The notes below the pieces were generated by a model. The model was not told where the DNA came from. It was given only the letters and a program-made list of their open reading frames with translations, and made no database searches. Made by a program: the position numbers and the translations under genes. A DNA stretch of 57,138 nt from a virus (lineage: Duplodnaviria; Caudoviricetes). The stretch's first letter is position 1. Every line of letters starts with the position of its first letter. Location of the stretch: positions 1-57,138 of the IMG/VR virus record IMGVR_UViG_3300028384_001023. One strand, written 5' to 3'. Shown here in pieces: positions 5,637 to 56,189 of the stretch.

Positions 5637-5637
5637 A

Positions 5638-8522: not shown

Positions 8523-8524
8523 AC

Positions 8525-10458: not shown

Positions 10459-10468
10459 GTGGTATAAT
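10440..10468 (+). promoter_or_regulatory. sigma70-type early promoter
   Basis: A-tract, TTTACA-17 bp-TATAAT, with TGG before the -10. Confidence 0.85.
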
Positions 10469-34098: not shown

Positions 34099-35939
34099 TG
34101 TCAACAACGATTAAGTCATCTGATCTAGATTTTAATGCTATTAAATCTAACTTAAAGAATTACTTTAAGGCTACTGATGAATTTAAAGACTATGATTTTG
34201 AAGCATCAGGCTTATCAAATATCCTTGATGTATTAGCATATAATACACACATCAATGGACTAACAGCCAACTATGCATTAAATGAATCATTTCTCAGTAC
34301 TGCTCAACTACGTAGCTCTGTTGTTTCCCATGCAAACACATTAGGATACGATGTGCGATCAATGACTGGTGCAGTTGGTTACGTAAACCTATCTGTTAAC
34401 CTTTCAGTAGTTTCAAATCGACCAGTTACCGTAGAGTTAGCAAAAGGCACACAGTTTACTGGTTCAGTAGATGGAGTATCTTATACGTTTAGAACAACAG
34501 AAACATATTTTGGTAGAGATAATGGATTTGGTGTTTATGACTTTAAAACTTCGGCTGGTTCGAGTGACATACCAATTACTGAAGGTACAGAAAGAGTAAA
34601 GACTTTCTTAGCAGGTGATAAAAGCGAAAGAACGATCTACGTAATACCAGACACAAACATGGATAAGTCGACAGCAGTTGTAAGAGTTTATGATACTGCG
34701 ACTTCATCTGCATTTACGTCATATGCTCCACTGAAGACAGCTGTTCAGGTAGATGCTGATTCAACATTCTTCACTCTTCATGAAGCACCAAATGGTTATT
34801 ATGAACTGAACTTCGGTGATGGTATTTCTTTTGGTAAATCTCCTGAACCTGGAAATAAAATTGACGTTACGTATCTCACAACAGTTGGCCCTCAAGCTAA
34901 TGACGCAGGAAGCTTTAGTGCTAATTCACCGATATCAGTTAACGGGCAAAACTATACACTTCTTGTTACGACAGCTGCCAACTCGGCTGGAGGTGCAGAT
35001 AAACAAACCGTAGAATCAGTAAAACAGTTAGCTCCATATGCTTATGCATCTCAACAAAGACTAGTGACATCTCTTGATTATAAGTCAACTATATTGAGTA
35101 ATTATACTGCAGTTGAGGATTGTGCAGTTTGGAGCGGAGATCAAAATATACCGATCGACTATGGCCGTGTATATGTATCTCTTAAGTTTGATCCAAATAC
35201 AACAGCTGCTTCTCAGGCTGCAATAAAAGATTCAATCGTAAATAACTTTACACAGAATTTGGCCGTAATGTCGATTGAAACTAAATTTACTGATCCGGTT
35301 GAAACATTTATTGAGCTGACAACAAACTTTCAATTTGATCCAGCTCTTACAGGAAGTACTCTTTATAGTACAGAAGCCGAGATCTTTAACTTTAAAAAAT
35401 CCTATTTTAAGAATAATCTAGGAAAATTTGATACAGTATACCGTCGATCAAATCTCTTGACAGAACTTGATGCTCTGAGTCCTGCTATCTTATCAACTAA
35501 ACAAGACGTGAAAGCTCAGTTACGTTTTGAACCAACAGTTGGCGTAAGTACTGATCATAAGCTATCATTCCCTATGAAGATCGCTGCACCTGATGACGTA
35601 CAACCTATAGTGACATCAACCACTTTCCAATATTTAGGAAAAGTAGCATTAATCAAAAATAAACTTGAAAGCAGTATTCTACAGATTTATGACTTAAATG
35701 GTAATGTACTGTTAGATAATGTTGGAGAATATAGAGCACAAGAGGGTATTGTGGATATCGTTGCTATAAATCCTCAAGCCCTTCTCTTTGGTGTAAATTA
35801 TATTAAAGTGAGTGTTGTTCCAGAGAATCAAAGCTTAATCAAACCTCTACGTAATTATATCTTATCGTTGGATGAAGACTTAACTTCAGCGACAGCTATC
35901 ATCGACAGACAGACAACTACATTGGAAATTGATGTATAA
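34098..35939 (+). CDS. gp6: baseplate wedge gp6
   Basis: LDFNAIK, DYDFEASGLSNILDVLAYNTH, ESFLSTAQLRSSVVSHA, QQRLVTSLDY. Confidence 0.95.
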   Translation: MSTTIKSSDLDFNAIKSNLKNYFKATDEFKDYDFEASGLSNILDVLAYNTHINGLTANYALNESFLSTAQLRSSVVSHANTLGYDVRSMTGAVGYVNLSVNLSVVSNRPVTVELAKGTQFTGSVDGVSYTFRTTETYFGRDNGFGVYDFKTSAGSSDIPITEGTERVKTFLAGDKSERTIYVIPDTNMDKSTAVVRVYDTATSSAFTSYAPLKTAVQVDADSTFFTLHEAPNGYYELNFGDGISFGKSPEPGNKIDVTYLTTVGPQANDAGSFSANSPISVNGQNYTLLVTTAANSAGGADKQTVESVKQLAPYAYASQQRLVTSLDYKSTILSNYTAVEDCAVWSGDQNIPIDYGRVYVSLKFDPNTTAASQAAIKDSIVNNFTQNLAVMSIETKFTDPVETFIELTTNFQFDPALTGSTLYSTEAEIFNFKKSYFKNNLGKFDTVYRRSNLLTELDALSPAILSTKQDVKAQLRFEPTVGVSTDHKLSFPMKIAAPDDVQPIVTSTTFQYLGKVALIKNKLESSILQIYDLNGNVLLDNVGEYRAQEGIVDIVAINPQALLFGVNYIKVSVVPENQSLIKPLRNYILSLDEDLTSATAIIDRQTTTLEIDV

Positions 35940-37012
35940 TGGCACACCGCGTTGGATCATCTGAAACACTGAAGGACTATAATACTCTTAAGCCTAATAT
36001 GCGTAAGAGTATTGTACAAGAAGCTTTACCTGAACACTACAGGGAAGATTATCCAAATCTAGTTGAATTTCTCGAAGGATACTATGACTTTTTAGATTCT
36101 GATCAATCTTTCGGCGGTATTATCAATGAACTACAAACAGTAAGAGATGTAGAAGATACAAAATTATCAGAACTAGATTATATCTTTGGTGAGCTAGCTC
36201 TTGGAGTATCGAACGACCAATTCAAAATACCACGTGAAGCTATACGAAACTTTGGTAATTTCTTTCGCGTAAAGGGCTCACTCTTTTCAGGCGAAGGTTT
36301 CTTTCGAGGTTTCTTTGATGAAGATGTAGAGATATCATATCCCAAGAAAAAGATCTTTACGATTGGTGGTCCACAGATTGGACCTAACCATGGTTACGTT
36401 ACTCAAAACGCAGCGCGCTTCCAAGTATTTTCTTTATTCATTAAATCTCCACTTTCTATATCAGCGTGGGAAGAATTGTGGAGAAAGTTTGTACACCCGT
36501 CTGGTTTTTATCTCAGCGCAGAAGTTTTACTCGAAGGCACAGATGGTATTACAATTAAGACAGACGAGTCTGTTCCAGATCCATTTAAGAATATCTTCTT
36601 CGTAGCTGATATAGCTTCAATCACAAGATCTGCTGAAGGTGAAGTATCACATCTAAATGATTATTGGGCAAATAGTTATCTATCACCTGGTGGTCATATT
36701 AATGAACCACAATATCGCACAAATCCATATCGCTTGATAGGATATTGGGCAGATTCGGATCAAGCAGCAGGTGTTGGAAGTAGACTCTATGCTAGCATTA
36801 ACGATGTTATAACTGAGTATAAAGATCTAAAAGAATGGGCAGATTGGGGTATTACATACGATAATACACTCGACTCAAACGCGACAGCTATTACATTCGA
36901 TAATACATATGAACGTTATGATATGAGGAATTTCCAAACATATCGTTCTGACCAAGGACAATTTGTGGCTCCTGGTTACATAAAGCAAGGCTATATCTTA
37001 AATAGTCCATAA
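35939..37012 (+). CDS. gp7: baseplate wedge gp7-like
   Basis: LPEHY..FLEGYY, FFRVKGS, FVHPSGF; follows gp6. Confidence 0.7.
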   Translation: MAHRVGSSETLKDYNTLKPNMRKSIVQEALPEHYREDYPNLVEFLEGYYDFLDSDQSFGGIINELQTVRDVEDTKLSELDYIFGELALGVSNDQFKIPREAIRNFGNFFRVKGSLFSGEGFFRGFFDEDVEISYPKKKIFTIGGPQIGPNHGYVTQNAARFQVFSLFIKSPLSISAWEELWRKFVHPSGFYLSAEVLLEGTDGITIKTDESVPDPFKNIFFVADIASITRSAEGEVSHLNDYWANSYLSPGGHINEPQYRTNPYRLIGYWADSDQAAGVGSRLYASINDVITEYKDLKEWADWGITYDNTLDSNATAITFDNTYERYDMRNFQTYRSDQGQFVAPGYIKQGYILNSP

Positions 37013-37019
37013 AAACTGT

Positions 37020-37027
37020 TATAAATA
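37020..37027 (+). promoter_or_regulatory. T4-type late promoter
   Basis: TATAAATA in intergenic gap. Confidence 0.8.
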
Positions 37028-37053
37028 AGACCAAATACATATTAGGATAGAAC

Positions 37054-38790
37054 ATGGCAAGACAAATTATTGGAGTTGGCACAGCAGGTAATGACGGTAC
37101 AGGCGATGACCTCAGAACTGGTGCTAATAAGATAAACCAAAACTTCCAAGATTTATACTCTCAGATGACAGCTTTGAGCTTGAGTCTGAGTCTTTCAGCG
37201 ACAAACTCTAATGGTATTGGTTTTGGTTTTGATGGGGTTCTTTTTGATGGAGCTACAAAAGACTCGTTTAATACTGTTACTCGTCTTATTCCTACAGACC
37301 CTACACAAATTAATATTCAAAGTATGCAAGACAGTTCAGGTGTCTTGGCATTCTTAAGTGATATCACTCGTATTATTAATAAGCAACACATTTTAGGTAT
37401 CAAAGGAAGCGGGACAAGTTTACTTGATTCGGCCGCGGCAATCGATGCTATGTTTGCTGAAGGTTTCCTCGATTCTGCACGTGCTGTGCGTATCTCACTT
37501 GATTCTGCCGATGTCACATCTTATATCGATGCAGCATATGTCCAAGCACGGCAAACACATTATCTTGATTCTAACGCAGCTTTGAATTTCTTGATGTCAG
37601 CGCAGCAAGTCGATAGCGCCTTTGATTCAAATATCGCATCAAGAGATAGTGATATCGCAAAACTACAAGCTGATGTTCTAGCCACATCCACTGCATTTAC
37701 AGATGACATTCAAGAATCTGCAAATGCGATCAATATCTATTATACTACAGCTAGACATGATTCTGATACACTCGTCTTAGTCGACTCAGCATACGTAAAT
37801 GCACGTGTCGCTGATGCACCAAATGCACTTGACTCGGCCGAAGGCCAAGCAATGATCGAGTCAAACCTGGGTGCAGTAAATCAAGACTTAGTGCCATTAC
37901 TTGATTCTGTATACGATCTTGGTTCGCCAACTAAGAAGTGGAAAGACCTACACTTAAGTGGTAATACGATCTTCCTCGGTGGTGGTACTATATCATTTGA
38001 TAACAATGAATACACATTTGGCAATGGATCGTTAAAGTCAGAACAAGCCATCTCAATGGATTCTGGCCAAAGATTATTCTTCGCTGCCAGTGGCGCAAAC
38101 ATCACACACTCGCAGGATCCACAATCTAATTCATTGATGGTGAATGCGAATACAGTCACACTACGTACTACCGATGATGCTAAACCTGGTTGGTATATCA
38201 AGACTAACTCACCATCAAACGGTGCTTTCTCTGTCATGGGTAATGCTGGCTTGATTATGTTGCCGCATAACACGAATACTAATCGTACACAGTATAGCAC
38301 AAATGCATTCTATGATGATGACTATCGTAAAGGTGCCATTCATTATTCAACTACAGACAATCGTGTTGAGATGTCTGATTCTGATGGTTGGTTCCCAGTT
38401 TATCGCAATAACGCAGCAGTAGCATACTTTACATTCGGTCTTGATGCTGCCACATCGGGTGCATCTAATCAAGATCTGTTTACTACCAATGGCGCATCAC
38501 CTACTAACGGCTATGTAATGCCAGTCGATGGTGCGGTGACAAATATCACTGCGCGCTTTACATCTAGTTCATATGGTGGATCTTCATCTACCTTCTTGCT
38601 TGACATTGATGTGAATGGTACTACTATACAGTCAAGATCAATAGAAGTAACAGGAAATGGTACTCAAACCATGAATACTACTTGTAACGTTCCTTATAAC
38701 TCGGGAGATGCAGTATCAGTAGCTCTAACACAAGATGCGGGTCACACAGCCTCTAACACCGCAGTAATACTTAGGATTCAGGAAGACTAA
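37054..38790 (+). CDS. baseplate/fibre protein with gp9/gp10-type N-terminus, DS-rich
   Basis: IGVGTAGNDGTGDDLRTGANKINQNF; YDLGSPTKKWKDLHLS. Confidence 0.7.
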   Translation: MARQIIGVGTAGNDGTGDDLRTGANKINQNFQDLYSQMTALSLSLSLSATNSNGIGFGFDGVLFDGATKDSFNTVTRLIPTDPTQINIQSMQDSSGVLAFLSDITRIINKQHILGIKGSGTSLLDSAAAIDAMFAEGFLDSARAVRISLDSADVTSYIDAAYVQARQTHYLDSNAALNFLMSAQQVDSAFDSNIASRDSDIAKLQADVLATSTAFTDDIQESANAINIYYTTARHDSDTLVLVDSAYVNARVADAPNALDSAEGQAMIESNLGAVNQDLVPLLDSVYDLGSPTKKWKDLHLSGNTIFLGGGTISFDNNEYTFGNGSLKSEQAISMDSGQRLFFAASGANITHSQDPQSNSLMVNANTVTLRTTDDAKPGWYIKTNSPSNGAFSVMGNAGLIMLPHNTNTNRTQYSTNAFYDDDYRKGAIHYSTTDNRVEMSDSDGWFPVYRNNAAVAYFTFGLDAATSGASNQDLFTTNGASPTNGYVMPVDGAVTNITARFTSSSYGGSSSTFLLDIDVNGTTIQSRSIEVTGNGTQTMNTTCNVPYNSGDAVSVALTQDAGHTASNTAVILRIQED

Positions 38791-38792
38791 TC

Positions 38793-40142
38793 ATGCCAGC
38801 AATTGTAACCGACTCACTCCGAACCCTTCTTGCTCGTCAGTTCTTTGATAATTTTGTCAATGCGACTGCACGATATTATATTGGTATCGGGAGATCAGAA
38901 GTATGGGATAGTTCTGATACGGTACCTACTCCTACCAATACTCCTACTGCAATCTCAGGTGCAAGGAATCAAATGCAATCAGTGAAGAAAGTACAGGCTA
39001 CTTCACTTGTTGTACCACGATATAATTGGTCAAGTGGTACTATCTACTCACAATATGATAATACTGTTTCTGGTTATCCTACACAACCATATTATGTGAT
39101 GAACGATAATAATAACGTGTATATTTGTCTAGAGACTGGGCGCAATAATAATGGTGTTGCTGTTCCTTCAACTATCGAACCAACATCAGCAAATAATCAT
39201 TCTTTCAGATCGAGTGATGGTTATGTTTGGAAGTTCTTATTTACGGTAAGTGCAGAACGCGCCAATAACTTTATGTCATCAAATTATATGCCTGTAAAGA
39301 AGCAAGCTGCTACAGACTCAAACTCAACTGGAATACAATTAAAACAAAAAGAGATTCAAGATACTGCTATTTCTGGTGCAGTTACTTCAGTAGTAATTAC
39401 TAATGTTGGCTCAGGATATACTTCTAATCCTACAGTTACTATTTCAGGTACCGGTACAGGAGCAAAAGCGCATGCACGCATTGACTCTGCAACAGGAACA
39501 CTTGCAACGATTAAGATGCACGATTCTGGTACATCACAAATATTGGGTAGCGGTTATACAGTAGCACAAGTTAAATTAACAGGCGGTGGTGCTGGTGCAG
39601 TTCAAGGTACAGCGCGACCAGTCCTTGGACCAGATTCTGGAATTGGTGCTGATGCTCGAGTAGATTTGAAGTCTGGTGCCATCATGTTCCACACACGTAT
39701 TGAAGGAACAGACAGTAACTTTATTGTCGGTCAAGATTTCAGACAAGTCACACTCATTAAAGATATCAAAGATAGCTCAGGATCTGTTTACACAGAAACG
39801 ACTGGCAGTGTATTGAAGCGTATGACTCTCAGCACTATCGTGACTTCATTTACTCGCGATAAAAAGATTCGAGGCACTACGACTCTTGCAGAAGCATATA
39901 TCGATGATATTGATTCAAACGTAATTTATTATCACCAAACTGATAGTACAGGATTTACTGCATTCCAAGATGGAGAGGCTTTGAGTGAAGCAAATGGTGC
40001 TGGTTCAGGTATTATTGATTCGGCTCTCATACCTCCTCCTGTAGATCCGAACACTGGTGACATATTATACATAGACAATAGAGCACCTGTACTCAGGTCA
40101 GCTGTACAATCTGAAGATGTTAAAATCATTCTACAGTTCTAA
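38793..40142 (+). CDS. gp8: baseplate wedge gp8
   Basis: YIGIGR, VVPRYNWSSGTIY, YVMN..VYICL, DGYVWKFLF, GDILYIDNR. Confidence 0.9.
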   Translation: MPAIVTDSLRTLLARQFFDNFVNATARYYIGIGRSEVWDSSDTVPTPTNTPTAISGARNQMQSVKKVQATSLVVPRYNWSSGTIYSQYDNTVSGYPTQPYYVMNDNNNVYICLETGRNNNGVAVPSTIEPTSANNHSFRSSDGYVWKFLFTVSAERANNFMSSNYMPVKKQAATDSNSTGIQLKQKEIQDTAISGAVTSVVITNVGSGYTSNPTVTISGTGTGAKAHARIDSATGTLATIKMHDSGTSQILGSGYTVAQVKLTGGGAGAVQGTARPVLGPDSGIGADARVDLKSGAIMFHTRIEGTDSNFIVGQDFRQVTLIKDIKDSSGSVYTETTGSVLKRMTLSTIVTSFTRDKKIRGTTTLAEAYIDDIDSNVIYYHQTDSTGFTAFQDGEALSEANGAGSGIIDSALIPPPVDPNTGDILYIDNRAPVLRSAVQSEDVKIILQF

Positions 40143-40151
40143 GGATTAATC

Positions 40152-43100
40152 ATGCCGCTAAATTTTAACGATACTACCTTTAATACAAGATACAGGGACG
40201 ATTTCACCGATAGTGACGGTTATTATCGTATCCTGTTTAATAGTGGTAAAGCTCTGCAAGCACGTGAACTTACGCAGATGCAAACTATCATTCAAAATCA
40301 AATCGAAAGATTTGGTAATGGCTTGTTAAAAGAGGGTGCAGTCGTAAAAGCTGGTGGTTTAACAGTCGATAATGCGTATGAGTTTGTAAAACTAGATCCT
40401 ACTTCTACAAGTACTACTGCAACTGTCGGATCTATATTAACTGGTGCTACGTCAGGAGTAACAGGTGTAGTTTTAGCCGTTGAGGCTGCATCAGGAAGTG
40501 ATCCAGCAACAATCTTTGTGCGCTATAATAATACTACAAATATTGCATTGGCTTCTACTTCACCTCGATTTACACCAGGAGAAAGTTTAGGCAGTGGACT
40601 TATAGTTCAGATAATTGACACTACTGCTAATCCAGCTGTAGGACGTGGTACTCTTGTAACTGCAGGTGAGTCAATTTTCTTTAGTCAAGGTTTATTCGTT
40701 TGGACAGAAGAGCAAACCCTAATACTTGATAAGTACAGTGATATTGCTAACGGAGAAGTAGGATTTCAAATCTTACAAGATATCATTACAGTAAATGATA
40801 CAAATAAACTCTATGATAATCAAGGCACTAATCCTAACTTAACTGCGCCTGGAGCTGATAGATATCGTGTTAGATTAAAAATTATTGAAAAGTCTGATGT
40901 ACCTGCAGGCGGAAACTTCTTACACATAGCAACAGTAAAAAATGGTGTTGTTTTTAATGTAGTAGAAGACGCTTATGTTACTCAGTTCAGTATACCTCGT
41001 GATCTTTTAGCTTTACGAATAAAGGAAAATTCGGGCGACTACATAGTAAAACCATTTAAGTTATTATTTGAAGATGATTCTGCCAATACTCATCTACTGA
41101 TGAATGTAAGCGACGGCATTGGGGTAATAGAAGGTTATCGTGTTGCTCGCAATACTCCTACTAAGATAAGAGTGGCAAAACCTACTACTACATATGAAAT
41201 CACGAATGAAGCTACTGGTATTGACTTTGGTAATTACGTAGAAGTACACAGAGATTCATCTGTAAGTGGTCCAAATACAAATACTATGCAACAATTAAAT
41301 CTGCGTGACTCTGCAGATTATAATGGTTCTACTATTGGTACTGCAAGAGTAAGAGCAATTACAGATGTTGGTGGTAATAGTTTACGTTACTCTCTATTCG
41401 ATATTCAAATGAATAGCGGTAATAACTTTCGAGAAGTAAAGAGTATTGGCACAGGATCTGGTCAATATTTTAATCCTCTTCGTCTATCAAATAATACTGT
41501 GCTGTCTGATCGTACAAATCACAGCTTGATTTTTCCATTACAAGGTACAAGACCTAGTACAATATCAAACGCATCTTTAACTCACCAATATTATATTTCA
41601 GGTACATCATCTGCTGGTGGTCAACTTACGATCGATGTAAGCACCATTGGTACACTCGATAATGCAAATGATTGGATATTCCTCACTCCTACAGGAACTG
41701 TTGATAATAGCACTCTCGGCGGATTAAATGTTGGTAGTGGTACAACAACCGTAACTGGTCTTCCTACATCAACAGCTATTAAAGCATATGTTTATGTCCA
41801 AGAGCCTTCTGCGATTGTGCGTACGAAGACAAACCAAACTGACACAAGAATTTATAAGACTATTGAAACTGTAAATGGACAACAGCAAATTAACCTCGAT
41901 GTTCCAGATGTTCATAACATTAAAGCCATCAAATTAACAGATTCAAATGGAATTGATATTGCCGATAGATTTGCGTTAGACGACGGCCGTCGTGATAATA
42001 TGTATAATTTCTCTCGTCTACTACTTAGACCTGGTGCAACAGCTCCTACAGGAAATGTTTATGTACGTTTTGATTATTTTAGTCACGGTCCAGGTAACTT
42101 CTTTGCGGCGAATAGTTATAATGGCGCTGTAAATTACGCTGATATACCAGATTATCGTAATGCAGCTGGCGAACGGATCGACATGCGTGACGTATTAGAT
42201 TTTCGCCCTGTTTCTAATGATTCTGATGGAAACTTCGCTACTTCAGGTATTTCGTACCTTCCACAACCAGCAACAGTAGTGACATCTGATAACACGTATT
42301 ACAACGCACAAGCTGGCATACTCTCAATCGACAAAGAAAATAACTTTATAGTAACACTTGGAGATCCTGCGCAGGTTGCGACTGTAGATCAGAGTTCTAT
42401 CATTGGTTTACCTCTTTATAGGTTTACATTAAATGCTAATACTTTAAATGATAGTGACTTGTCAATTTCAATTATTGATCATAGAAGATATACAATGAAA
42501 GATATTGGTATGATCGAAGATCGAATTGATAAGCTAGAAGAAGCAGTAGCACTAAATGCTCTAGAAAATAGTATATTGTCATATCAAGTTTATGATTCAG
42601 CTGGACTTGATAGAACAAGAGCAGGTATTTTTGTAGATAATTTCTATGATCATACTCGTATCGATAGATTGCCAGGTGCAGGATACAGAGCATCAATTGA
42701 TCCTCTAAAAGGCCATATGCGTCCAGGGTTTATAGAAAATAACATACGCTTGATTTACGATTCTGCAGCATCAACAAATACTATCCTAAAGGGTGATAAT
42801 GTTTACGTAAAGCATGATGAAATAAAATTCTTAGAACAACCATTTGCCTGTTTAGCAACTAAAATTAACCCGTTTACAACATCAACTTATGAAGGTAACG
42901 TAGTAGTATCACCAGCATCAGATGAATGGAGAGATATCGAAGTTGCTTCAAAGACAATGATTGATGGTGGTACAAAATTAGCCACAAATAATGCGCTGAA
43001 CTGGGACAACTGGTCTTGGAATTGGGGTGGAAAAACAGTTGATGAGTTAAAAGTAGGTGATAATACAAATACTATTACGAAAACATCTGGTAGTACAAAG

Positions 43101-43817
43101 ACAAAGACTGTGAATAAAGTAGTTTCAGAGTCTACTTTGTTAGAAGTAATTGGTCAAAGAGTGTTAAATATTGCTTTATTGCCTTATATTAGATCACGTA
43201 TAGTATCAATCAAGGCACGTGGATTAAGACCAAATACAAACGTTGCGGTATTCTTTGATGGTGATCGCTTAGAAGATTACGTAAGAGAAGCTCCATTTGA
43301 AAGATACAGCTCAACGACAAAAGATTACGGTAACACATTAAAGGGTTTATTATCACACCCAGACGGAGCTACTGCTCTTATTACAAATGCAAATGGTGAA
43401 GTAGATATCTCGTTTATGATACCGAATAATAGCTCTTATAAATATAGAGCTGGTAGCCATGAAATAAAGATTCTTGATATTACAATAGATAGAGAAGAAT
43501 TAGCTGGTACTATTGCTAGAGGTGTATACACTGCTCAAGGATATCTCGATACAGTGCACCAAGATATCAAATCAACTCGTGTGTTAGAGGTAGAAGGTTC
43601 TAAGACTACAGAAATCATCCATTATTATTCTAGCGGAGGAGACGGCCGCGGCGGCCGCACCAGCAGTGGTGGAGGCGATAATGATTATACGCCTAGTCAC
43701 TACAGCGATACTGGCGGATATTCAAACAGCGGAAGCAGGGGCCGACAAGATTATGATGGTGGTGGTGATCCGTGGGGTGGCGGCGGCTCAGATTTTGGCG
43801 GCGGCCAGTGGACATAG
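40152..43817 (+). CDS. large virion structural protein (DUF4815/VrlC-like), N-terminal part
   Basis: YRILF...LQARELTQMQ, APGADR, RRYTMKDIG, GIFVDNF. Confidence 0.75.
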   Translation: MPLNFNDTTFNTRYRDDFTDSDGYYRILFNSGKALQARELTQMQTIIQNQIERFGNGLLKEGAVVKAGGLTVDNAYEFVKLDPTSTSTTATVGSILTGATSGVTGVVLAVEAASGSDPATIFVRYNNTTNIALASTSPRFTPGESLGSGLIVQIIDTTANPAVGRGTLVTAGESIFFSQGLFVWTEEQTLILDKYSDIANGEVGFQILQDIITVNDTNKLYDNQGTNPNLTAPGADRYRVRLKIIEKSDVPAGGNFLHIATVKNGVVFNVVEDAYVTQFSIPRDLLALRIKENSGDYIVKPFKLLFEDDSANTHLLMNVSDGIGVIEGYRVARNTPTKIRVAKPTTTYEITNEATGIDFGNYVEVHRDSSVSGPNTNTMQQLNLRDSADYNGSTIGTARVRAITDVGGNSLRYSLFDIQMNSGNNFREVKSIGTGSGQYFNPLRLSNNTVLSDRTNHSLIFPLQGTRPSTISNASLTHQYYISGTSSAGGQLTIDVSTIGTLDNANDWIFLTPTGTVDNSTLGGLNVGSGTTTVTGLPTSTAIKAYVYVQEPSAIVRTKTNQTDTRIYKTIETVNGQQQINLDVPDVHNIKAIKLTDSNGIDIADRFALDDGRRDNMYNFSRLLLRPGATAPTGNVYVRFDYFSHGPGNFFAANSYNGAVNYADIPDYRNAAGERIDMRDVLDFRPVSNDSDGNFATSGISYLPQPATVVTSDNTYYNAQAGILSIDKENNFIVTLGDPAQVATVDQSSIIGLPLYRFTLNANTLNDSDLSISIIDHRRYTMKDIGMIEDRIDKLEEAVALNALENSILSYQVYDSAGLDRTRAGIFVDNFYDHTRIDRLPGAGYRASIDPLKGHMRPGFIENNIRLIYDSAASTNTILKGDNVYVKHDEIKFLEQPFACLATKINPFTTSTYEGNVVVSPASDEWRDIEVASKTMIDGGTKLATNNALNWDNWSWNWGGKTVDELKVGDNTNTITKTSGSTKTKTVNKVVSESTLLEVIGQRVLNIALLPYIRSRIVSIKARGLRPNTNVAVFFDGDRLEDYVREAPFERYSSTTKDYGNTLKGLLSHPDGATALITNANGEVDISFMIPNNSSYKYRAGSHEIKILDITIDREELAGTIARGVYTAQGYLDTVHQDIKSTRVLEVEGSKTTEIIHYYSSGGDGRGGRTSSGGGDNDYTPSHYSDTGGYSNSGSRGRQDYDGGGDPWGGGGSDFGGGQWT

Positions 43818-43834
43818 GTAAATAAGGATTAAAA

Positions 43835-45418
43835 ATGGCAGTAAATTCACTCGGTTACGTATCTAGTAAAAATCCTATAGCACAATCGATTTATATCGAT
43901 GAACCTACAGGCATATTTGTTACTAAGATCAAACTTTTCTTTAAGAGCCGCGTTAATCCAGGTAACGTCTATGTACCTCAAGTTTCGGTGCAGTTAAGAC
44001 CAATGCGTAATGGAGTTCCATCTATAACAGATATTATTCCTGGGTCAGTAGTATATTTAAACTCAAGTGCTATTAATGTTTCTGCAGATGGCAGTACAGG
44101 TACTGATTTTGTCTTTGATGAACCTGTATTTCTTGACGGCTTAAGAGATTACGCAATAGTGTTATATTCTGAAATACCAGATTATGAAGTTTATATTTCA
44201 GAAATTGATAAACAAATTATTGGTTCAAACTCTTTACGTGTATCAAAAAATCCTAGTATTGGTAGTTTATTCTATTCACAAAATGGAGCTACATTTACTG
44301 CCAATCAAAAACAAGATCTTAAATTCGAATTATATAGAGCAGAATTTAGGCATAAAACTGCGGAAGTAATATTACATAATGCTACACTTCCTCGTCATAA
44401 ACTTACAAATAATCCTATGCGAGTAGTGAATGGAGCTTCTGAAGTTTATGTTTATCTACCAGGACATGGGTTGACTGTAGGAGATGAAGTTGCTATTACT
44501 GGTGCTGTAGGATTTGCTAATATTGCGGCTTCAGCATTGAATGATGACCATACAATTACTAAAGTTGATGCTACAGGATACGAGTTTGATTGTGGTACGA
44601 ATGCTAATGCAGATGCTTTAGGCGGAGGAAATGCAGTACAATCATTAAGAAATATGCCTTTTTCTGCAATATATCCACATACTCAACTGATGTTACCTGG
44701 TGGGACTAGTCAAGGTTCTAGGATAAAAACTTCAACTGGTAAATCCTTTGCTGGCTTAGAAACTCCATATACAAAATCAGCTAACTATAATACTATTGCT
44801 TTGAATAATACTAGCTACAATCTTCAAGCCCCGCAGGTCGTCATGGCAGACTCTATCGAATCGGTAGAACTAGCTGGTGGAGTGAAATCCCTTGATTTAA
44901 GTATTGAAATGTCATCTAATAATACAATCGTTTCTCCGATTGTTGACTTACAACGTAGTTCAATATCTCTAATTCATAATATGATTGATAAGCAAGATTC
45001 TGCTACACGAACTGGTTTTAATACTCCAGTATTCTATGTAGGTGAAGAAGAAAAAATTGCTGGTAGCGCTGCAGCTAAACACATCACTATACCTGTAAAG
45101 TTAAGAGAAGACGCCGTAGGATTAAAGGTCATCTTAGCTGCTAATGTGCCTTCTGCTTGTGATTATCAGTTGTTTTATAGAACTACTACTGGTGATGGAG
45201 ATCTTCGTGAAGAATCATTTATTGAAATTAAACCAGAAACTCAATTTCCTAAAGATGATAATCCTCTAGTATTTAGAGAACACGAATATCTAATTGGTGG
45301 CAGAGGCGGACAATTAGATGCGTTTTCGCAGTATCAGTTGAAAATAGTAATGAGATCTACTAATAACGCTCGTGTGCCAGTATTCAAGGACTTAAGAACT
45401 ATAGCATTAGCAACATGA
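43835..45418 (+). CDS. virion structural protein (C-terminal part of the DUF4815/VrlC-like protein)
   Basis: PIAQSI..GIFVTKIKLFF, GSLFYSQNG, DLKFELYRAEF, PVFKDLRTIAL. Confidence 0.75.
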   Translation: MAVNSLGYVSSKNPIAQSIYIDEPTGIFVTKIKLFFKSRVNPGNVYVPQVSVQLRPMRNGVPSITDIIPGSVVYLNSSAINVSADGSTGTDFVFDEPVFLDGLRDYAIVLYSEIPDYEVYISEIDKQIIGSNSLRVSKNPSIGSLFYSQNGATFTANQKQDLKFELYRAEFRHKTAEVILHNATLPRHKLTNNPMRVVNGASEVYVYLPGHGLTVGDEVAITGAVGFANIAASALNDDHTITKVDATGYEFDCGTNANADALGGGNAVQSLRNMPFSAIYPHTQLMLPGGTSQGSRIKTSTGKSFAGLETPYTKSANYNTIALNNTSYNLQAPQVVMADSIESVELAGGVKSLDLSIEMSSNNTIVSPIVDLQRSSISLIHNMIDKQDSATRTGFNTPVFYVGEEEKIAGSAAAKHITIPVKLREDAVGLKVILAANVPSACDYQLFYRTTTGDGDLREESFIEIKPETQFPKDDNPLVFREHEYLIGGRGGQLDAFSQYQLKIVMRSTNNARVPVFKDLRTIALAT

Positions 45419-45615
45419 AGTTATCTAAAATACAAGGCCATGATAACATGGCTATCGATGAAAACGGTGTAATACATAATATAAATAAGAATGAGATTGA
45501 AGCTGCACGTGAAAGAAAAAAACTACGTAAGCAGCGAGATGCCGAGTTAGAAGATTTAAAGAAGGACGTGAGCGAGATGAAAGATATGCTCGCTAAAATC
45601 ATAGAGAGACTATAA
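45415..45615 (+). CDS. small coiled-coil protein
   Basis: ELEDLKKDVSEMKDMLAKI; coupled to neighbours. Confidence 0.7.
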   Translation: MKLSKIQGHDNMAIDENGVIHNINKNEIEAARERKKLRKQRDAELEDLKKDVSEMKDMLAKIIERL

Positions 45616-46160
45616 TGCCAAGAAAAATATTAGTAAACCTGAATAATTCTATCGGCACTTTCGTTCAAAAGACGAATGCAATGTCTGACTATGTAGGTGA
45701 CCTCGATAACCTGAATCCAGCAATCGCCGCAGCAAATTCAGACTCTAACTTAGTATCGGCCATTAATTACCTTGACTCTGCTGTAGCCCTACTGGGTGAT
45801 AGTGCCAACTTCTCATTCATGAAAGTTGATAGTGCTGTTATTAATTTCTTAACGGTTGACTCTGCAGTAATCACCACTCTACATGCAGATAGTGCATATA
45901 TAACATATGCTTCGATTAATAGTGCTGATATTAATCACCTTACTGTTGATAGTGGCGCTGTAATTAATGGTGGTCTAGTCGTTGACCGTATCACTGTTAC
46001 AGGAGATTCAACAGATGTGATTCTCCCATACGGCTCGATTGATAGTAACGAGATTCATGATAGCTCAATTAGTAGCAGACACATGGCTATGCTAGTTACT
46101 ACTCTTATTCTCGATTCAGCAGGAACTACATTAAAGACATTATATACACCAGGTAAATAA
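45615..46160 (+). CDS. putative virion fibre protein with ~10-aa DS repeats
   Basis: SNLVSAIN; KVDSAVIN/TVDSAVIT/HADSAYIT periodicity. Confidence 0.65.
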   Translation: MPRKILVNLNNSIGTFVQKTNAMSDYVGDLDNLNPAIAAANSDSNLVSAINYLDSAVALLGDSANFSFMKVDSAVINFLTVDSAVITTLHADSAYITYASINSADINHLTVDSGAVINGGLVVDRITVTGDSTDVILPYGSIDSNEIHDSSISSRHMAMLVTTLILDSAGTTLKTLYTPGK

Positions 46161-47390
46161 ATGACTGTACGCTCACCTTTATATTATACAGACAGTGGCA
46201 ATTTTCAAGAGTACTCATTAGTCGAACTCAATGATATTTACGCTGCAGTAAAAAGACAATTCTTAGCTTCTCCTTCGGTCGTACTCAACGTTGTGGCTTC
46301 AGGAGGAAACTTAGGTAATATATCAGAAACTCAAGTGATTGCTAGTCCAGCAAGAAGCAATAATCGTAGTTTTGGTAATAACACAGGCACACTAGGTAAC
46401 ATATCTACTGGTACTGTACAATATAGTCGTATCAATCAGGTACTCACACCTCCGGCTCAAAGCTTCAATGTTCAAAGTTTTAAGACTGGAGCATTTGGTA
46501 CAAATCCACCAATATACATGAATGATAGTGGAAACTTTGAACCATTCAATGATTCAGACTTTATCGATACGTTTGTTAAGCCCGCGGTAAATTCATTTGC
46601 ATCAGCTGCAAGCGATCCACTTTATCAAATCGCTGGTGCTGTAACACCTACAGGATACTCACGAGTATCGAATACTCCTATATACGTTGATAATAATGCC
46701 AATATTAGCGCATATGGTTCAGGAGCTTTGCCCGAAGCAAGGACTCAAGGGACAGTAATCAACAACTATTATCTTGTTCGTAAATCAAGTGGTGGAGTAA
46801 ATAACATTAGATCAGATGTTACGTATCAAATAGTAAATTTACAAGGCGTAGGAACTGGATTAAAAGTAGATGTATCAAAAATTGGCACGACATATAATTT
46901 GATTATTAATGATGGCGGTCAAAACTATCAAGCTGCTGATAGCTTCAAGATACTAGGAACTGAGCTTGGTGGTTCTACTCCTGATAATGATATCAATTTT
47001 CTAGTCAATGGTGTAGACTCTGCAAATGCTCCACAGCCATTTGCTGTCACAGCTTTAATTACCTCTGGTACTCCAGTTGCAAAAGAATACCACGTACCAG
47101 TTACTCATACAAACTCTGGTGATTTTAAAGTAATGCCAAAATCAACCTTTGATAATATGATTCAGTTAGCTGCAAAAGATGTTTCTACGTCCACTCCTGG
47201 TTATACTATCACATACGATTTTAATACTGGCCAACAGGTCGGTACAGCTATGATAGACACTCGGCTATTGAATCCAACACAAACAAGAAGAAACTATCAA
47301 ACTGGTGATACATACTATTCACAGAGAGTGCCAACTGGTGGAACACAAACTCAAGTTAACTCACATTATTTAGGAGTCACTATAACATGA
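46161..47390 (+). CDS. putative virion structural protein
   Basis: Ser/Thr/Gly/Asn-rich; three repeated DSGNF/NSGDF-like motifs. Confidence 0.6.
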   Translation: MTVRSPLYYTDSGNFQEYSLVELNDIYAAVKRQFLASPSVVLNVVASGGNLGNISETQVIASPARSNNRSFGNNTGTLGNISTGTVQYSRINQVLTPPAQSFNVQSFKTGAFGTNPPIYMNDSGNFEPFNDSDFIDTFVKPAVNSFASAASDPLYQIAGAVTPTGYSRVSNTPIYVDNNANISAYGSGALPEARTQGTVINNYYLVRKSSGGVNNIRSDVTYQIVNLQGVGTGLKVDVSKIGTTYNLIINDGGQNYQAADSFKILGTELGGSTPDNDINFLVNGVDSANAPQPFAVTALITSGTPVAKEYHVPVTHTNSGDFKVMPKSTFDNMIQLAAKDVSTSTPGYTITYDFNTGQQVGTAMIDTRLLNPTQTRRNYQTGDTYYSQRVPTGGTQTQVNSHYLGVTIT

Positions 47391-47884
47391 TTACCTCAGA
47401 AAACCTTGTACAGGCTCGTTATACTGATGACGCTCGTACTACTATTGAATGTTTAATTAAAAATGACGTAGATGATTTGATGCATTCTTTCTATGTCAAC
47501 GTTGACCCTGAGAATGTTTATTTTCAACAGTTAATGACAGTTGCATCTCTCGAAGATATTGATGCATGGTCAGAGACTTACTATGCAAATATCCGTGAAG
47601 AGATTGAGACAGTACACACCCAACTAATCGAAGCTGGCAAGGTTGATTATACACGTATTGCTGGTCCAGAAGATACTGCTCAACAAATGGAAAAGTATGC
47701 ACAGATGATGTTTGCATACGACGACACTGATACCGATCACGTTGAAAAGATGTTTAACTTGAAGCTTGAGCTGTTTGAGTTAGATGAAGTAGAAAACGCG
47801 GATAGCGCAACAAAAGAAGCTTTACGTTTAGAGGATGATCCTGTAAATCTTGTTAAACAATTATGGGATATCAGGAATCCATAG
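47387..47884 (+). CDS. hypothetical acidic protein
   Basis: GGAG RBS, coupled ORF at end of tail operon. Confidence 0.65.
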   Translation: MITSENLVQARYTDDARTTIECLIKNDVDDLMHSFYVNVDPENVYFQQLMTVASLEDIDAWSETYYANIREEIETVHTQLIEAGKVDYTRIAGPEDTAQQMEKYAQMMFAYDDTDTDHVEKMFNLKLELFELDEVENADSATKEALRLEDDPVNLVKQLWDIRNP

Positions 47885-48482
47885 TGTAGTGTAATAACTT
47901 TACATTTGGGTTTACTTTATCTAAATAAAAGTAATCACCTGGGTATTTACGATTTATTTGAGTCAACCATTCTTTGGTTGGCTCTTTTATCATACGGCCA
48001 CACCATTCATCAGGTATAAATTTCAAATCGAGTCTCTTCTTAACCATGTACTCTACGAAATTCTCTTCGCCGTTTACAGGACCAGGTTTTACACCGAGTT
48101 TAATAAAATACTCTTCCCAAAAGAATTGAGATTGTACAAACTCGTCGTAGATATATCTTACGTCGTCAGGATAAAACTTATAAAAACCACCGTTGAGTTC
48201 ACAACCTGATACTTCTTCCCACCATGACCTCATACTCAAGAACTCTCCGCGTTTTATCGGATAGTTGATGATATCCATGTAGTCATTGATTAGGTCAATA
48301 TCAATATCGAGTACTACGACTGGCTCAGGACCTTGCACATTAAAGAAATTTATCTTATTCCACTGTAGCTTAAATTGTCCTTCATGCATAACTTCGATAT
48401 GCGGTATACGTTGCCGTATATGGTCTTCATAATCTAGCCCATATTTACTGCCTATGCGGCACGTATAAACCCTCAATTCCAT
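47871..48482 (-). CDS. glycosyltransferase-like protein
   Basis: CRIGSKYG, VVLDID, NGGF; paralog of 48473 and 51421 genes. Confidence 0.6.
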   Translation of the reverse strand: MELRVYTCRIGSKYGLDYEDHIRQRIPHIEVMHEGQFKLQWNKINFFNVQGPEPVVVLDIDIDLINDYMDIINYPIKRGEFLSMRSWWEEVSGCELNGGFYKFYPDDVRYIYDEFVQSQFFWEEYFIKLGVKPGPVNGEENFVEYMVKKRLDLKFIPDEWCGRMIKEPTKEWLTQINRKYPGDYFYLDKVNPNVKLLHYTMDS

Positions 48483-49246
48483 AGTTCTTCTACCTTGTCA
48501 TACATCTGTGCTGCTTCATGTAATTCAAAATTAGTAGAGTTATTTGGATCAGTGTTGAATACACATATAATCTTGTCGTCTCTGAGTTTATGTCTTTCCA
48601 TATCATCAGGCCATTTACAACCTCGATTGAACGAGTAGTACATTGAAGGTGGTAGAAAATCAAACTTATCAAGATGACGTTGACTAATAAAATTGTCTGA
48701 TCCACCTGTGTAGATATGATAGATCCTTTCAGCGTGTTCTATACAATCATTCCAAATATCTATTAACTGAGTATCATCCCACATATAAAATCCACCATTA
48801 TTTTTGGCACCATGTCGATGCTTCCAATCAGGGTTATTTTCGTGTTCTGGATTGTGCCACCAAGATCTACCTGTCAATGGTCTTCCTTTGTACAGATTGA
48901 GTATAGGAGTCATATCGTTGTGTATGATAACGTCTAAGTCAAGTGCTATTCGTAAACCAGTTAAGCCCCAACAATACGGTTTAAAGTAGTTTAACTTTGG
49001 TCTGTCCCATAGGCGAGGCTTTCCGTTTCTCCAGTTATCTGAAGAAAACATTTCATCTGGCGTTGATTCTGGTAGGTCTCGTAGGAATGGGAGTATGGTT
49101 ATACGTTCATCTATTCCCTGTGCATCCTCTGTCTGACAGTAGAATTTAAATTCACAGGGCATATGTTTTTTAACCATATTATAAAGCCGATTGACATATA
49201 TTGGTTCATATTTGTCTCCCCACTTACTGCATATGATATTAATCAT
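48473..49246 (-). CDS. glycosyltransferase-like protein
   Basis: CSKWGDKY..YVNRLYNMV, ALDLDVII, NGGFYMW, GSDNFI. Confidence 0.65.
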   Translation of the reverse strand: MINIICSKWGDKYEPIYVNRLYNMVKKHMPCEFKFYCQTEDAQGIDERITILPFLRDLPESTPDEMFSSDNWRNGKPRLWDRPKLNYFKPYCWGLTGLRIALDLDVIIHNDMTPILNLYKGRPLTGRSWWHNPEHENNPDWKHRHGAKNNGGFYMWDDTQLIDIWNDCIEHAERIYHIYTGGSDNFISQRHLDKFDFLPPSMYYSFNRGCKWPDDMERHKLRDDKIICVFNTDPNNSTNFELHEAAQMYDKVEELWN

Positions 49247-49865
49247 CTCTTTCGCCAATAATCATAAATCTCTTATTATAATGATAATCATCGAATGGTA
49301 TCTCACCCTTATAGAAAGGTTTTATGATACCTGTCTGTTCTTGAAATTCTTCAAGAGATTCTACACAGTTTACATGAGCAGGTTCTTGTATGAAATCGTT
49401 TGATTGGAAAGCACACATGCCTTTGAATCTAATATCCTTCATATGCCACATATGCTCGCATGATGTATTGATTATGATATCTGCTTCAAGACTCTTCATG
49501 TCAAAGCTAATATCTCGACATTCGGTAGTAATATTACTGAACATCATCTTTGCTATATTCAATGTTCCGTGATCATAATCAACTAATACGATCTCTTTAA
49601 TATCTTTTAAATAATGTCTTAAGAGAGGAACGATTAGTGTACCATACCAAGCACCGAGTACATAGATGGTCTTATCCTTTTTTCCAGCCACAGGTGATAA
49701 TGATAGTCTTTCGACTAACCAAGATTTAGCTCTTATTTGATTTTCAGAATAAGAACGGGCGAAGTCTAAAGATCGATGCGGGTATTCTACTGCTATATGT
49801 TGTGCTATACGAGAAAATGTCCAAAATGGTATTGGACACTTAAGCATTGTTTTTGTAATAGTCAA
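49239..49865 (-). CDS. class I SAM methyltransferase-like protein
   Basis: VLGAWYG, LVDYD, IINTSCEH, RFMIIG. Confidence 0.65.
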   Translation of the reverse strand: MTITKTMLKCPIPFWTFSRIAQHIAVEYPHRSLDFARSYSENQIRAKSWLVERLSLSPVAGKKDKTIYVLGAWYGTLIVPLLRHYLKDIKEIVLVDYDHGTLNIAKMMFSNITTECRDISFDMKSLEADIIINTSCEHMWHMKDIRFKGMCAFQSNDFIQEPAHVNCVESLEEFQEQTGIIKPFYKGEIPFDDYHYNKRFMIIGERDD

Positions 49866-50610
49866 AGCTTTTTCCTCCCAAGACTTGGCCGTCTACATTA
49901 CAACTAATACAAGGACTCATGATTCTTTTTCCCCTCATCATTAAATTACGATAAGAATTAAAGTAATCTGATTCCCATATATCGTGTATCCAATCTCTGT
50001 TTACATTACCAAATACTTGGCTTACGTTCCAATCATTACTGCATAGACCAACATCACCATTCCAATTTACAAACATCTTATAGAAGGGTAAGAAACATGC
50101 TCGTTCTTTATTGATTATCTTTTTATCAGACCACATTTCATTTCTGTTTACCTCTACCTCTTCTGGTAAACCAGTATAATAATGTTTGTATATACGTTCG
50201 ATATCGTATTGTTTTAAAAAAGACTCATAATGTTCTGTCATGTCTTCATCATACATAGAGACCTTTATGCAGTTAATACCTGCTTTTACAAGTTCAGCCG
50301 CAGACTCTGATGTTAGATAATCACCATTTGTTATGAGCTTTATCTGTTTTAATTGTACACCACTTTTTAGTGTTTGTACATAGTTTTTTATTTTTTTATG
50401 TAATAAAGGTTCGCCGAACCCAGCTAAGGTAATAGTTCCCTGATAATCTAAGTTTCGTAGAGAACGATTAATCGACTTAATCGTATTCATACTCATCTGC
50501 GATTTTGTATTTTCAAATCCTACACCGCGAGGGCAAAAGCTGCATGTACGGTTACATATGTCAATGAGATTCAATTCTATCGAAGAAAGGGTGTTCCTTG
50601 TTAAGCGCAC
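49840..50610 (-). CDS. radical SAM/SPASM-twitch protein
   Basis: CNRTCSFC, GFGEPLLH, ITNG, CFLPF..GDVGLC, CISC. Confidence 0.9.
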   Translation of the reverse strand: MRLTRNTLSSIELNLIDICNRTCSFCPRGVGFENTKSQMSMNTIKSINRSLRNLDYQGTITLAGFGEPLLHKKIKNYVQTLKSGVQLKQIKLITNGDYLTSESAAELVKAGINCIKVSMYDEDMTEHYESFLKQYDIERIYKHYYTGLPEEVEVNRNEMWSDKKIINKERACFLPFYKMFVNWNGDVGLCSNDWNVSQVFGNVNRDWIHDIWESDYFNSYRNLMMRGKRIMSPCISCNVDGQVLGGKSFDYYKNNA

Positions 50611-53276: not shown

Positions 53277-53295
53277 TTCATAGAACTTCTGTGCT

Positions 53296-56160: not shown

Positions 56161-56189
56161 ATTATATCATATTATCACGGTCTTGTAAA
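56161..56189 (-). promoter_or_regulatory. sigma70-type early promoter driving the minus-strand cassette
   Basis: TTTACA-17 bp-TATAAT on minus strand, with TG extended -10. Confidence 0.8.

Follow-up and report, generated by a model that had tools for sequence, protein, structure and literature searches.

Excess of Asp-Ser Dipeptides in the Outer Baseplate and Fibre Proteins of a Clade of Uncultured Marine T4-Like Phages

Introduction

When a single dipeptide accumulates in the outer virion proteins of a phage that also carries many genes for sugar-active enzymes, does it mark residues for modification, or does it serve the architecture of the proteins themselves? This question is raised by a stretch of DNA of 57,138 nucleotides (IMG/VR record IMGVR_UViG_3300028384_001023), hereafter the window, which is a 57-kb piece of an uncultured T4-like myovirus with an estimated completeness of 28%. 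The window encodes gp32, baseplate hub and wedge proteins, a gp10-like protein, gp8, a VrlC/DUF4815-type protein, three small fibre-type genes, and two enzyme cassettes. An initial annotation of the sequence proposed that aspartate followed by serine (Asp-Ser, or DS) is concentrated in a subset of virion proteins encoded between positions 35939 and 47390, and that these pairs are acceptor sites for a glycan or another adduct made by the phage. Here, we report that in one clade of uncultured marine T4-like phages selection has favored DS, at the level of the protein, in the outer baseplate and fibre proteins, and we weigh the explanations for this excess.

The closest named phages are Phage C48C1 (58% identity in gp32 and 36% in gp8), OM43 phage Melnitz (55% in gp32), and cyanophages (approximately 52%). 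The closest cultured relatives infect OM43/Methylophilales, SAR11, or cyanobacteria. A Megablast comparison of positions 36000 to 48000 with deposited phages gave no matches. Relatives were collected with a gp8 scan, which returned 80 loci with 51 distinct gp8 sequences at 41 to 91% identity. The gene order gp6, wedge protein, gp10-like protein, and gp8 is conserved, and the clade resembles the pelagimyophages. The gp8 proteins of the window and of the cultured pelagimyophage HTVC008M are only 36% identical. Since psbA was not found in a complete relative of 149 kb (G001), this clade is not a typical cyanophage group.

Results

DS is overrepresented in three outer virion proteins

The DS counts of the initial annotation proved exact, i.e., 15 in the 578 residues of the gp10-like protein (open reading frame [ORF] starting at 37054), 11 in the 449 residues of gp8 (38793), 11 in the 181 residues of a fibre-like protein (45615), 9 in the 1,221 residues encoded at 40152, 5 in the 409 residues encoded at 46161, 2 in the 618 residues encoded at 29715, and none in gp32 (20191) or gp48 (25486). 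The significance of each count was determined with 20,000 residue shuffles that keep the composition of the protein. The proposed concentration was borne out for the gp10-like protein (5.7 expected, P = 1.5e-4), gp8 (3.0 expected), and the 181-residue protein (2.1 expected), with none of the 20,000 shuffles as high as the observed count for either of the latter two. It was marginal for 46161 (P = 0.034), where two of the five DS lie within a duplicated DSGNF, and failed for 40152 (7.2 expected, P = 0.30), which has 12 Ser-Asp (SD) pairs. Among the 400 dipeptides, DS is the most overrepresented in each of the three enriched proteins, which together contain 37 DS versus 9 SD (binomial P = 4e-5).

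Summed over the seven ORFs of the outer block (35939-47390), 56 DS were counted versus 24.4 expected, along with 27 SD. The corresponding DS counts were 14 versus 19.7 expected for the 13 ORFs of the inner baseplate and 34 versus 36.8 expected for the remaining 46 ORFs. A small residue (A, D, N, G, or S) follows DS at 49 of the 56 outer sites, and this position is varied elsewhere. Alanine is the commonest (DSA, 20/56), while DSD accounts for 9 sites, D or N together for 18, and A, I, L, V, M, or T for 25. The sequence contexts listed previously, namely LDSA, VDSA, IDSN, NDSD, and DSG, are all present, and Asp-Thr (DT) occurs zero to six times per outer-block protein.

The serines of the DS pairs are encoded by a mixture of TCN and AGY codons, and a search for tandem repeats in the DNA from 35939 to 47390 found none except two short arrays with scores of 31 to 33. 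The bias therefore acts on the protein, and a DNA-level cause is ruled out. In line with this, the earlier statement that the bias is not one repeat expansion holds for the DNA. It does not hold for the proteins, as recurring motifs are found in 45615, where they lie 8 to 11 residues apart, and in 37054, where they are of the LDSA/IDSAYVQAR type.

The excess recurs across the clade and is not clear in outgroups

The DS pattern recurs in orthologues at 41 to 47% identity. The gp8 family (51 sequences) has a mean of 8.1 DS versus 3.2 expected and a mean of 3.2 SD, DS outnumbers SD in 50 of the 51 orthologues, and most gp8 proteins of the clade contain DS at 2 to 4 times expectation. The observed-to-expected ratio reaches 2.9 in full-length members of the gp10-like family (DS > SD in 8/9) and 3.9 in the 45615 family (DS > SD in 9/9 distinct orthologues). 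DS-enriched ORFs of G001 lie at 108 to 135 kb, with the same geography as in the window, and those of a second complete relative (G006) encode gp8, the gp10-like protein, and several giant fibre proteins, one of which has 123 DS versus 38.5 expected. When the related loci were pooled, DS followed by D or E was found 612 times versus 179 expected, and DSA was found 518 times versus 117 expected. A comparison of DS with SD, DT, and Glu-Ser (ES), as suggested in the initial annotation, likewise singled out DS in the gp8 family, in which SD, DT (0.61 times expectation), and ES (0.36) are not enriched.

The ratio for gp8 of the outgroups ranges from 0.96 to 1.9 (T4, 1.9; P-SSM2, 1.8; S-RSM4, 1.6; Melnitz, 1.5; C48C1, 1.1; HTVC008M, 0.98; P-SSM3, 0.96), and their other outer proteins are flat for DS. 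Neither T4 gp8 (3 DS in 334 residues) nor T4 gp10 (4 in 602) is enriched. The outgroup values, six of the seven from phages without GT25, fall below the 2- to 4-fold excess seen in most of the clade, and the comparison with phages lacking the cassettes, proposed earlier as one that could refute a link with modification, therefore did not refute it.

The inner families gp6 (34098) and, on the hub side, 29715 and 31571 have DS at only 0.42 to 0.50 times expectation, but their SD is low too, so that Asp and Ser are rarely adjacent in either order; gp6 proteins, for instance, average 1.61 DS and 1.5 SD versus 3.22 expected. A DS-specific purge from the inner virion proteins is ruled out by these figures.

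In gp8, DS occupies fixed positions, mostly at predicted strand ends, loops, and helix starts

The gp8 baseplate wedge protein (38793-40142, plus strand, 449 residues) carries its 11 DS in nonrepeat contexts. Its assignment is supported by matches to PF09215 (35.4 bits, cut-off 25), to PHROG 438 over the full length (E = 1.9e-83), and to PDB chain 1n7z_A (E = 2e-6). A model predicted with AlphaFold 2 (mean predicted local distance difference test score [pLDDT] of 84.5) has T4 gp8 (1n7z_A) as its best Foldseek match (E = 2e-11), and the five best matches are gp8 of T4 and of Klebsiella phage KP1 (E values of 2e-11 to 7e-7, target TM-scores of 0.51 to 0.58). As modeled, the window protein has the gp8 fold.

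In this model, Asp is the last residue of a strand and Ser the first residue of a turn at positions 231, 244, 327, and 374. The pairs at positions 7 and 384 open a helix, those at 39, 175, 281, and 307 are in loops, and the one at 409 falls within a strand. Ten of the 11 pairs are thus placed at strand ends, loops, or helix starts, and 6 of the 11 mark either the beginning of a helix or the junction of a strand with a turn. Mapping DS on predicted structures had been proposed as a means of recognizing acceptor sites by their exposure. The placement in gp8 does fit an exposed acceptor, but it fits a structural turn residue equally well and does not separate the two readings, because both would be expected at such places.

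Residues 169 to 416 of gp8 (approximately 250 residues) correspond to only about 90 residues of T4 gp8, in three matched stretches, and contain 9 of the 11 DS. Two copies of a module of approximately 46 residues with a GSGYT motif are also found inside this region, at residues 195 to 290. Of the 51 sequences, 45 have DS at the column of residue 374, 37 at that of residue 244, 30 at that of residue 175, and 28 at that of residue 327. Columns held by more than 20% of the sequences number 16 for DS versus 5 for SD, while rare columns are about equal (20 DS versus 22 SD). The gp8 excess therefore comes from fixed positions and gives no sign of free turnover of the motif.

In the gp10-like and 181-residue proteins, DS belongs to a fibre repeat

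The gp10-like baseplate or fibre protein (37054-38790, plus strand, 578 residues, 15 DS) matches PF07880 with 32.4 bits at residues 3 to 40, and its match to the gp10 chains of the PDB is confined to residues 3 to 43. It is called gp10-like here on account of its position and this N-terminal domain, the rest of the protein having no apparent relative. Eleven of its 15 DS lie in residues 124 to 290 (37423-37923, plus strand), which are made of units such as LLDSA, FLDSA, SLDSADVTSYIDAAYVQARQ, and NIYYTTARHDSDTLVLVDSAYVNAR, together with IDAAYVQARQ. In nine orthologues, D125/S126, D140/S141, D150/S151, and D172/S173 are invariant. In a predicted model of low quality (pLDDT 38.4), a helix begins with the Ser of 5 of the 15 DS (125, 150, 172, 244, and 260).

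A search with residues 115 to 295 found 44 metagenomic proteins; the gp10 N-terminal domain is missing from the more distant ones. These relatives are built of LDSAxVxxLIDSAYVQARQ units and have 18 to 39 DS each, about four times the expectation. We then drew a profile of the repeat from 245 DS sites in nine metagenomic fibre proteins that we chose from the 44 matches. A hydrophobic residue is found at position -1 of 67% of the sites, Ala at +2 of 48%, and hydrophobic residues at +4 of 61% and +7 of 55%, with a following D and S at +9 and +10 in 34% and 30%, respectively. The same flank pattern is seen at the 26 sites of 37054 and 45615 in the window.

The 181-residue fibre-like protein (45615-46160, plus strand), for which no Pfam or PHROG match was found, carries most of its 11 DS in a unit of approximately 10 residues, h-x-x-h-V-DS-A-h-h, where h is hydrophobic. 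The spacings between successive DS are 11, 8, 10, 10, 10, 20, 19, 12, 6, and 18 residues, i.e., mostly 8 to 11 or about double, and its relatives have LIDSAYVQAR units at the same place. The DS sites consequently fall into two classes, the fibre repeat of 37054 and 45615 and the nonrepeat contexts of gp8.

A DNA pattern scan found IDSAYVQAR encoded in at least 129 IMG/VR stretches. Pfam gave no family above cut-off for five repeat-rich fibre proteins, a PDB sequence search with the repeat stretch gave no match at E ≤ 10, and literature mentions of the string DSAYV were unrelated among the matches listed. This repeat of 9 to 10 residues (hh-DS-A-hh, with LIDSAYVQAR as an example) is an uncurated, widespread, and modular element that is common in the fibres of uncultured phages.

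Other proteins of the outer block

The remaining outer-block proteins show the excess weakly or not at all. The 409-residue protein (46161-47390, plus strand), encoded in the same late operon as 45615, has five DS, with DSGNF at residues 11 and 122, and no Pfam or PHROG family match was found for it. The baseplate wedge protein of 357 residues (35939-37012, plus strand, PF23786) is not enriched, with three DS (P = 0.33), although its family is mildly so (ratio of 1.86; DS > SD in 23 and DS < SD in 9 of 48 distinct orthologues). The VrlC/DUF4815-type protein (40152-45418, plus strand, PF16075, PHROG 358) is encoded by two ORFs, 40152-43817 and 43835-45418, and is not DS enriched either, with 9 DS versus 7.2 expected in the first ORF and 2 versus 2.5 in the second. 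Both families are flat, with ratios of 1.18 and 1.09 and with DS < SD in 50/71 and 28/40 members. The two ORFs are in different frames and 17 bases apart, while G001 has a single ORF of 1,732 residues. In a 91%-identical relative, the first ORF has the same size (1,222 residues), so the split may be shared.

Two enzyme cassettes flank the structural genes

The left cassette (2042-10458, plus strand) encodes a PHROG glycosyltransferase, an epimerase/dehydratase, two methyltransferases, two GT8-like paralogues, a sulfotransferase, three GT25 proteins, and two unknowns. Its genes from 4321 to 10458 have counterparts in G001 at 35 to 52% identity, except that one GT25 paralogue is only 25% identical; the two gp8 proteins share 45%. 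The right cassette (47871-56126, minus strand) adjoins the fibre genes and encodes a radical SAM/SPASM protein, an aminotransferase-like protein, a PHROG glycosyltransferase, an AspH-like fragment, and several unknowns. No G001 counterpart was found for any of its ORFs. The radical SAM/SPASM and aminotransferase-like proteins adjoin each other at 49840-51445 (minus strand).

The initial annotation counted about a dozen glycosyltransferase-like proteins, which is too many, since the window supports three GT25 (Pfam), two PHROG glycosyltransferases, and two GT8-like leads. The methyltransferases and the sulfotransferase that it listed were recovered, as was the epimerase/dehydratase. Further supported enzymes are a fatty-acid desaturase, two aminotransferase-like proteins, a ketoacyl synthase, and the radical SAM/SPASM protein. 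Of the AspH-like enzymes, what was found is a fragment (54550-55089) that matches PF05118 with 30.3 bits (cut-off 22.6) over model positions 90 to 152 of 157 only, plus a 2-oxoglutarate oxygenase below threshold. The analogy drawn with Asp-hydroxylating enzymes is not supported, as the gene lies in the nonconserved cassette and matches 61 residues of the family model; PF05118 is absent from G001.

GT25 is present in 3 of 5 long related contigs and in 5 of 12 contigs with the fibre motif, including all 3 that are at least 58% complete. The motif-bearing GT25 contigs have gp8 proteins 43 to 61% identical to that of the window and belong to the same gp8 clade. Six of seven cultured outgroup genomes lack GT25, and a tblastn search of deposited phages with the window GT25 at 1e-8 gave no matches. 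The window sulfotransferase has a homologue in G001; a search of four outgroup genomes with it gave none. The cassette lies approximately 29 to 30 kb upstream of gp8 in both the window and G001, and the contigs with low-DS gp8 (L031, L077, L053, and L062) are too short to extend to its position. All three features, i.e., DS excess, fibre repeat, and cassette, are marks of a single clade, and their co-occurrence therefore counts as one evolutionary event.

The same layout is known from pelagimyophages, marine T4-like phages whose host recognition cluster has VrlC/DUF4815 in place of gp7, followed by fibres mixed with glycosyltransferases, of which GT8 is the commonest, and radical SAM cassettes (Zaragoza-Solas et al. 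2020, PMC7029224). The window has VrlC at 40152-45418, fibres at 45615-47884, and a cassette at 47871-56126, in the same setting of marine T4-like phages without cultured close relatives; the neck gene gp14, which bounds the pelagimyophage cluster, is outside the window. The passages of that paper on the cluster mention neither an Asp-Ser bias nor the LIDSAYVQAR repeat (PMC7029224). In HTVC008M, a cultured pelagimyophage, both the DS excess and GT25 are lacking.

Cassettes and structural genes carry different promoter types

A sigma-70-type promoter sequence, TTTACA-N17-TATAAT, occurs in five exact copies, at 598-626, 4612-4640, and 10440-10468 on the plus strand and at 54844-54872 and 56161-56189 on the minus strand, compared with 0.02 expected and with none of 100 shuffles reaching five. 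All five are within the two cassettes on the sense strand, none is in the structural block, and they are also among the best-scoring matches of a consensus scan. These copies look like the early promoters of the phage. The octamer TATAAATA, of the T4 late-promoter type, is found at 37020-37027 (plus strand), 27 bases upstream of 37054, and at 45480-45487 (plus strand), upstream of the operon 45615-47884, which is followed by a terminator-like hairpin at 47960-47984. Further copies closely precede 25486, 33655, and 56248, and copies on the minus strand precede 24940 and 25437. Another copy, at 43437, falls within the first VrlC ORF. In T4, sigma-70-type promoters serve early genes and the late-type octamer serves late genes. 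By analogy, the cassettes would be expressed early and the DS genes late. Such a split fits a host-directed role of the enzymes and is also compatible with their action on virion proteins.

The copy of TATAAATA at 56199 precedes a gene for a 117-residue protein (56248-56601, plus strand). The G001 orthologue of this protein (54% identical) has 5 DS in 122 residues and is encoded directly before a DS-rich fibre protein of 1,749 residues. Elsewhere in the window, a 160-residue protein encoded amid the baseplate genes (24955-25437, minus strand) has a TnsA-like endonuclease N-terminal domain (PF08722, E = 2e-20) and a 56%-identical counterpart at the same location in G001. Genes for fatty-acid desaturase-like, class-III aminotransferase, and beta-ketoacyl synthase proteins lie between the left cassette and gp32 (10895-13534 and 16525-17667); in G001, counterparts of the aminotransferase and the synthase are absent, and the desaturase-like gene is matched only weakly and in part.

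Discussion

We favor the explanation that Asp-Ser is a structural motif that starts or turns a local element, both in the fibre repeat and in the clade-specific loops of gp8, and we give it a probability of about 0.5. According to this proposal, DS would open each unit of a diverged 9- to 10-residue repeat in the gp10-like protein, the 181-residue protein, and the long fibres of the relatives. The unit would read two hydrophobic residues, D, S, A, two hydrophobic, two variable, and two hydrophobic residues before the next DS, with LIDSAYVQAR as its best-conserved form. Asp and Ser would cap a short helix or close a turn in the repeat, while in gp8 Asp would end a beta-strand and Ser would open a turn in the clade-specific surface loops. 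The neighboring glycan genes would act elsewhere, most simply on the host envelope. The structural explanation is favored because DS is embedded in a longer periodic motif and the repeat is widespread and modular, because the DS of gp8 sit at strand ends and helix starts and the gp8 excess comes from fixed positions, and because the cassettes have sigma-70-type promoters and the DS genes late-type ones. It also agrees with the description of pelagimyophages, in which the transferases are attributed to changes of the host O-chain or surface (PMC7029224).

Several observations weigh against this explanation. The capping or turn role is suggested by one good model, that of gp8, and one poor model, that of the gp10-like protein, whose pLDDT of 38.4 makes it unreliable and restricts its use to local helix starts; moreover, the PDB sequence search found no solved structure that contains the fibre repeat. 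Other turn-forming pairs go unused in the gp8 family (DT, NS, DG, and ES at 0.61, 0.58, 0.86, and 0.36 times expectation, respectively), and where the clade has DS, the homologous columns of the outgroup gp8 proteins hold different residues or gaps. Both residues of the pair are tightly kept in gp8 (45/51 in the best column), and two gp8 loops keep DS despite a register shift of one residue (50/51 at columns 261/262 and 42/51 at columns 43/44), which looks more like selection for a motif than for a fixed geometry. Structure alone also leaves unexplained why the same dipeptide recurs in different folds (gp8, the gp10-like protein, 45615, and the 35939 family) in this clade only, a clade that has a conserved glycan cassette as well.

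A second explanation is that DS with a following small residue (A, D, N, G, or S) marks serines on the exposed outer baseplate and fibres for modification by phage-encoded enzymes. The modification would be a sugar chain, which may be methylated or sulfated, added in the cytoplasm before or during assembly by enzymes that are made early and persist. This is possible, though we regard it as doubtful. It accounts for an excess that is limited to outer virion proteins, here and in two complete relatives, for a direction of the bias that holds in 50 of 51 gp8 orthologues, for the small residue at 49 of 56 sites, and for the retention of DS through the register shifts of gp8. The phylogenetic distribution points the same way: outgroup gp8 proteins are not clearly enriched (0.96 to 1.9), GT25 is missing from six of the seven outgroup genomes, the sulfotransferase has a homologue in G001 and none in the four outgroup genomes examined for it, the core of the cassette is conserved at 35 to 52% identity (25% for one GT25 paralogue) next to 45% for gp8, and each of the three motif-bearing contigs with a completeness of at least 58% has GT25. 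However, this co-occurrence reduces to one clade-level event (gp8 identity of 43 to 61%), P-SSM2 has GT25 even though its fibre-type proteins are DS poor (0.6 to 0.66), and the cassettes carry sigma-70-type promoters. Furthermore, the DS of the fibres is explained by the repeat, DS is not avoided in nonvirion proteins (0.92), and the low DS of the inner baseplate families is matched by low SD. The modification explanation stays alive on three grounds: the excess is confined to outer proteins, the bias has a direction, and the clade that shows it coincides with the one that has a conserved glycan cassette. A specific version, in which the GT25, GT8-like, methyl-, and sulfotransferases coat the baseplate and fibres by cytoplasmic O-glycosylation with a new family of writer enzymes that recognizes DS as an acceptor tag, is a tentative proposal of comparable standing.

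A known system for comparison is that of the staphylococcal glycosyltransferases SdgB and SdgA, which belong to CAZy family GT4 and to Pfam PF00534. These enzymes, of GT-B fold, attach O-linked N-acetylglucosamine to adhesins with Ser-Asp repeats, and the cytoplasmic enzyme accepts a minimal D-S-D peptide (PMC8561734). Since an SdgB-type enzyme accepts so short a peptide, an Asp-flanked serine can be a complete acceptor, which is a precedent for modification at DS sites. The targets in both cases are surface-exposed repeat proteins. Unlike in that system, DSD accounts for only 9 of the 56 outer sites and DSA for 20, and the sites are spaced and do not form a pure SD run. PF00534 (Glycos_transf_1) was found in none of four records, namely the window, its two complete relatives G001 and G006, and G007, which is 86% complete, with a positive control in 14/14 genomes. 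No writer enzyme can be named.

General O-glycosylation in Bacteroidota, invoked in the initial annotation, acts on exported proteins in the periplasm at D-(S/T)-(A/I/L/V/M/T). The likeness lies in the Asp before the acceptor Ser and in DSA as the commonest tripeptide here. The fit is otherwise poor: DT is not enriched in the gp8 family (0.61), the third position conforms at 25 of 56 sites, and the N termini of the virion proteins (MARQIIGVG, MPAIVTDS, and MPRKILVN) have, by inspection, no hydrophobic signal stretch. No link to a Bacteroidota host was found either, the closest cultured relatives infecting Methylophilales, SAR11, or cyanobacteria. A precedent for self-decoration comes from mycobacteriophages, in which, as Freeman et al. 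reportedly described in 2023, phage glycosyltransferases glycosylate the capsid and tail tube. That case concerns another phage group, another host, and other targets, and we know of no DS motif from it. With T4, the window shares the baseplate likeness of the gp8 fold and the gp10 N-terminal domain. A search of the literature on phage virion glycosylation and glycosyltransferases found, by title and start of abstract, no work on marine T4-like phages with a DS motif.

Alternatively, the DS pairs could form acidic and hydroxyl patches that bind divalent cations or a sugar of the host surface and thereby stiffen the fibres in seawater or aid reversible adsorption, with no covalent change. Their location on outer, receptor-facing proteins, the predicted exposed turns of gp8, and the D or N that follows DS at 18 of 56 sites would suit this explanation. 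It is nonetheless unlikely, as Ala is the commonest following residue (20/56), cyanophages and pelagiphages of the same waters have no such excess, and known cation-binding patterns (DxDxDG and DxSxS) were not seen on inspection of the sequences, no pattern search having been made. Finally, it is highly improbable that DS itself is under no selection and that composition, a DNA motif, or recent duplication produced the excess: D and S are each common in the outer proteins and the dipeptide was picked after the sequence had been read, yet the excess surpasses composition-keeping shuffles, SD with the same expectation is not enriched, the codons are mixed with no tandem repeat in the DNA, and the pattern recurs in orthologues of 41 to 47% identity and in two complete relatives.

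If DS is structural only, it defines a fibre repeat of the LIDSAYVQAR type that is uncurated, has no Pfam family, and has no solved structure. Being common in the fibres of uncultured marine phages, this repeat could be used to flag fibre genes in viromes. If the serines are modified, the pattern would be the first sign, to our knowledge, of a role for the sugar genes of marine T4-like phages in decorating the virion, in contrast to the published assignment of these genes to remodeling of the host surface. Were that true, host range, immune-like recognition, and particle stability would have to be interpreted differently for the relatives of phages that infect SAR11 and OM43.

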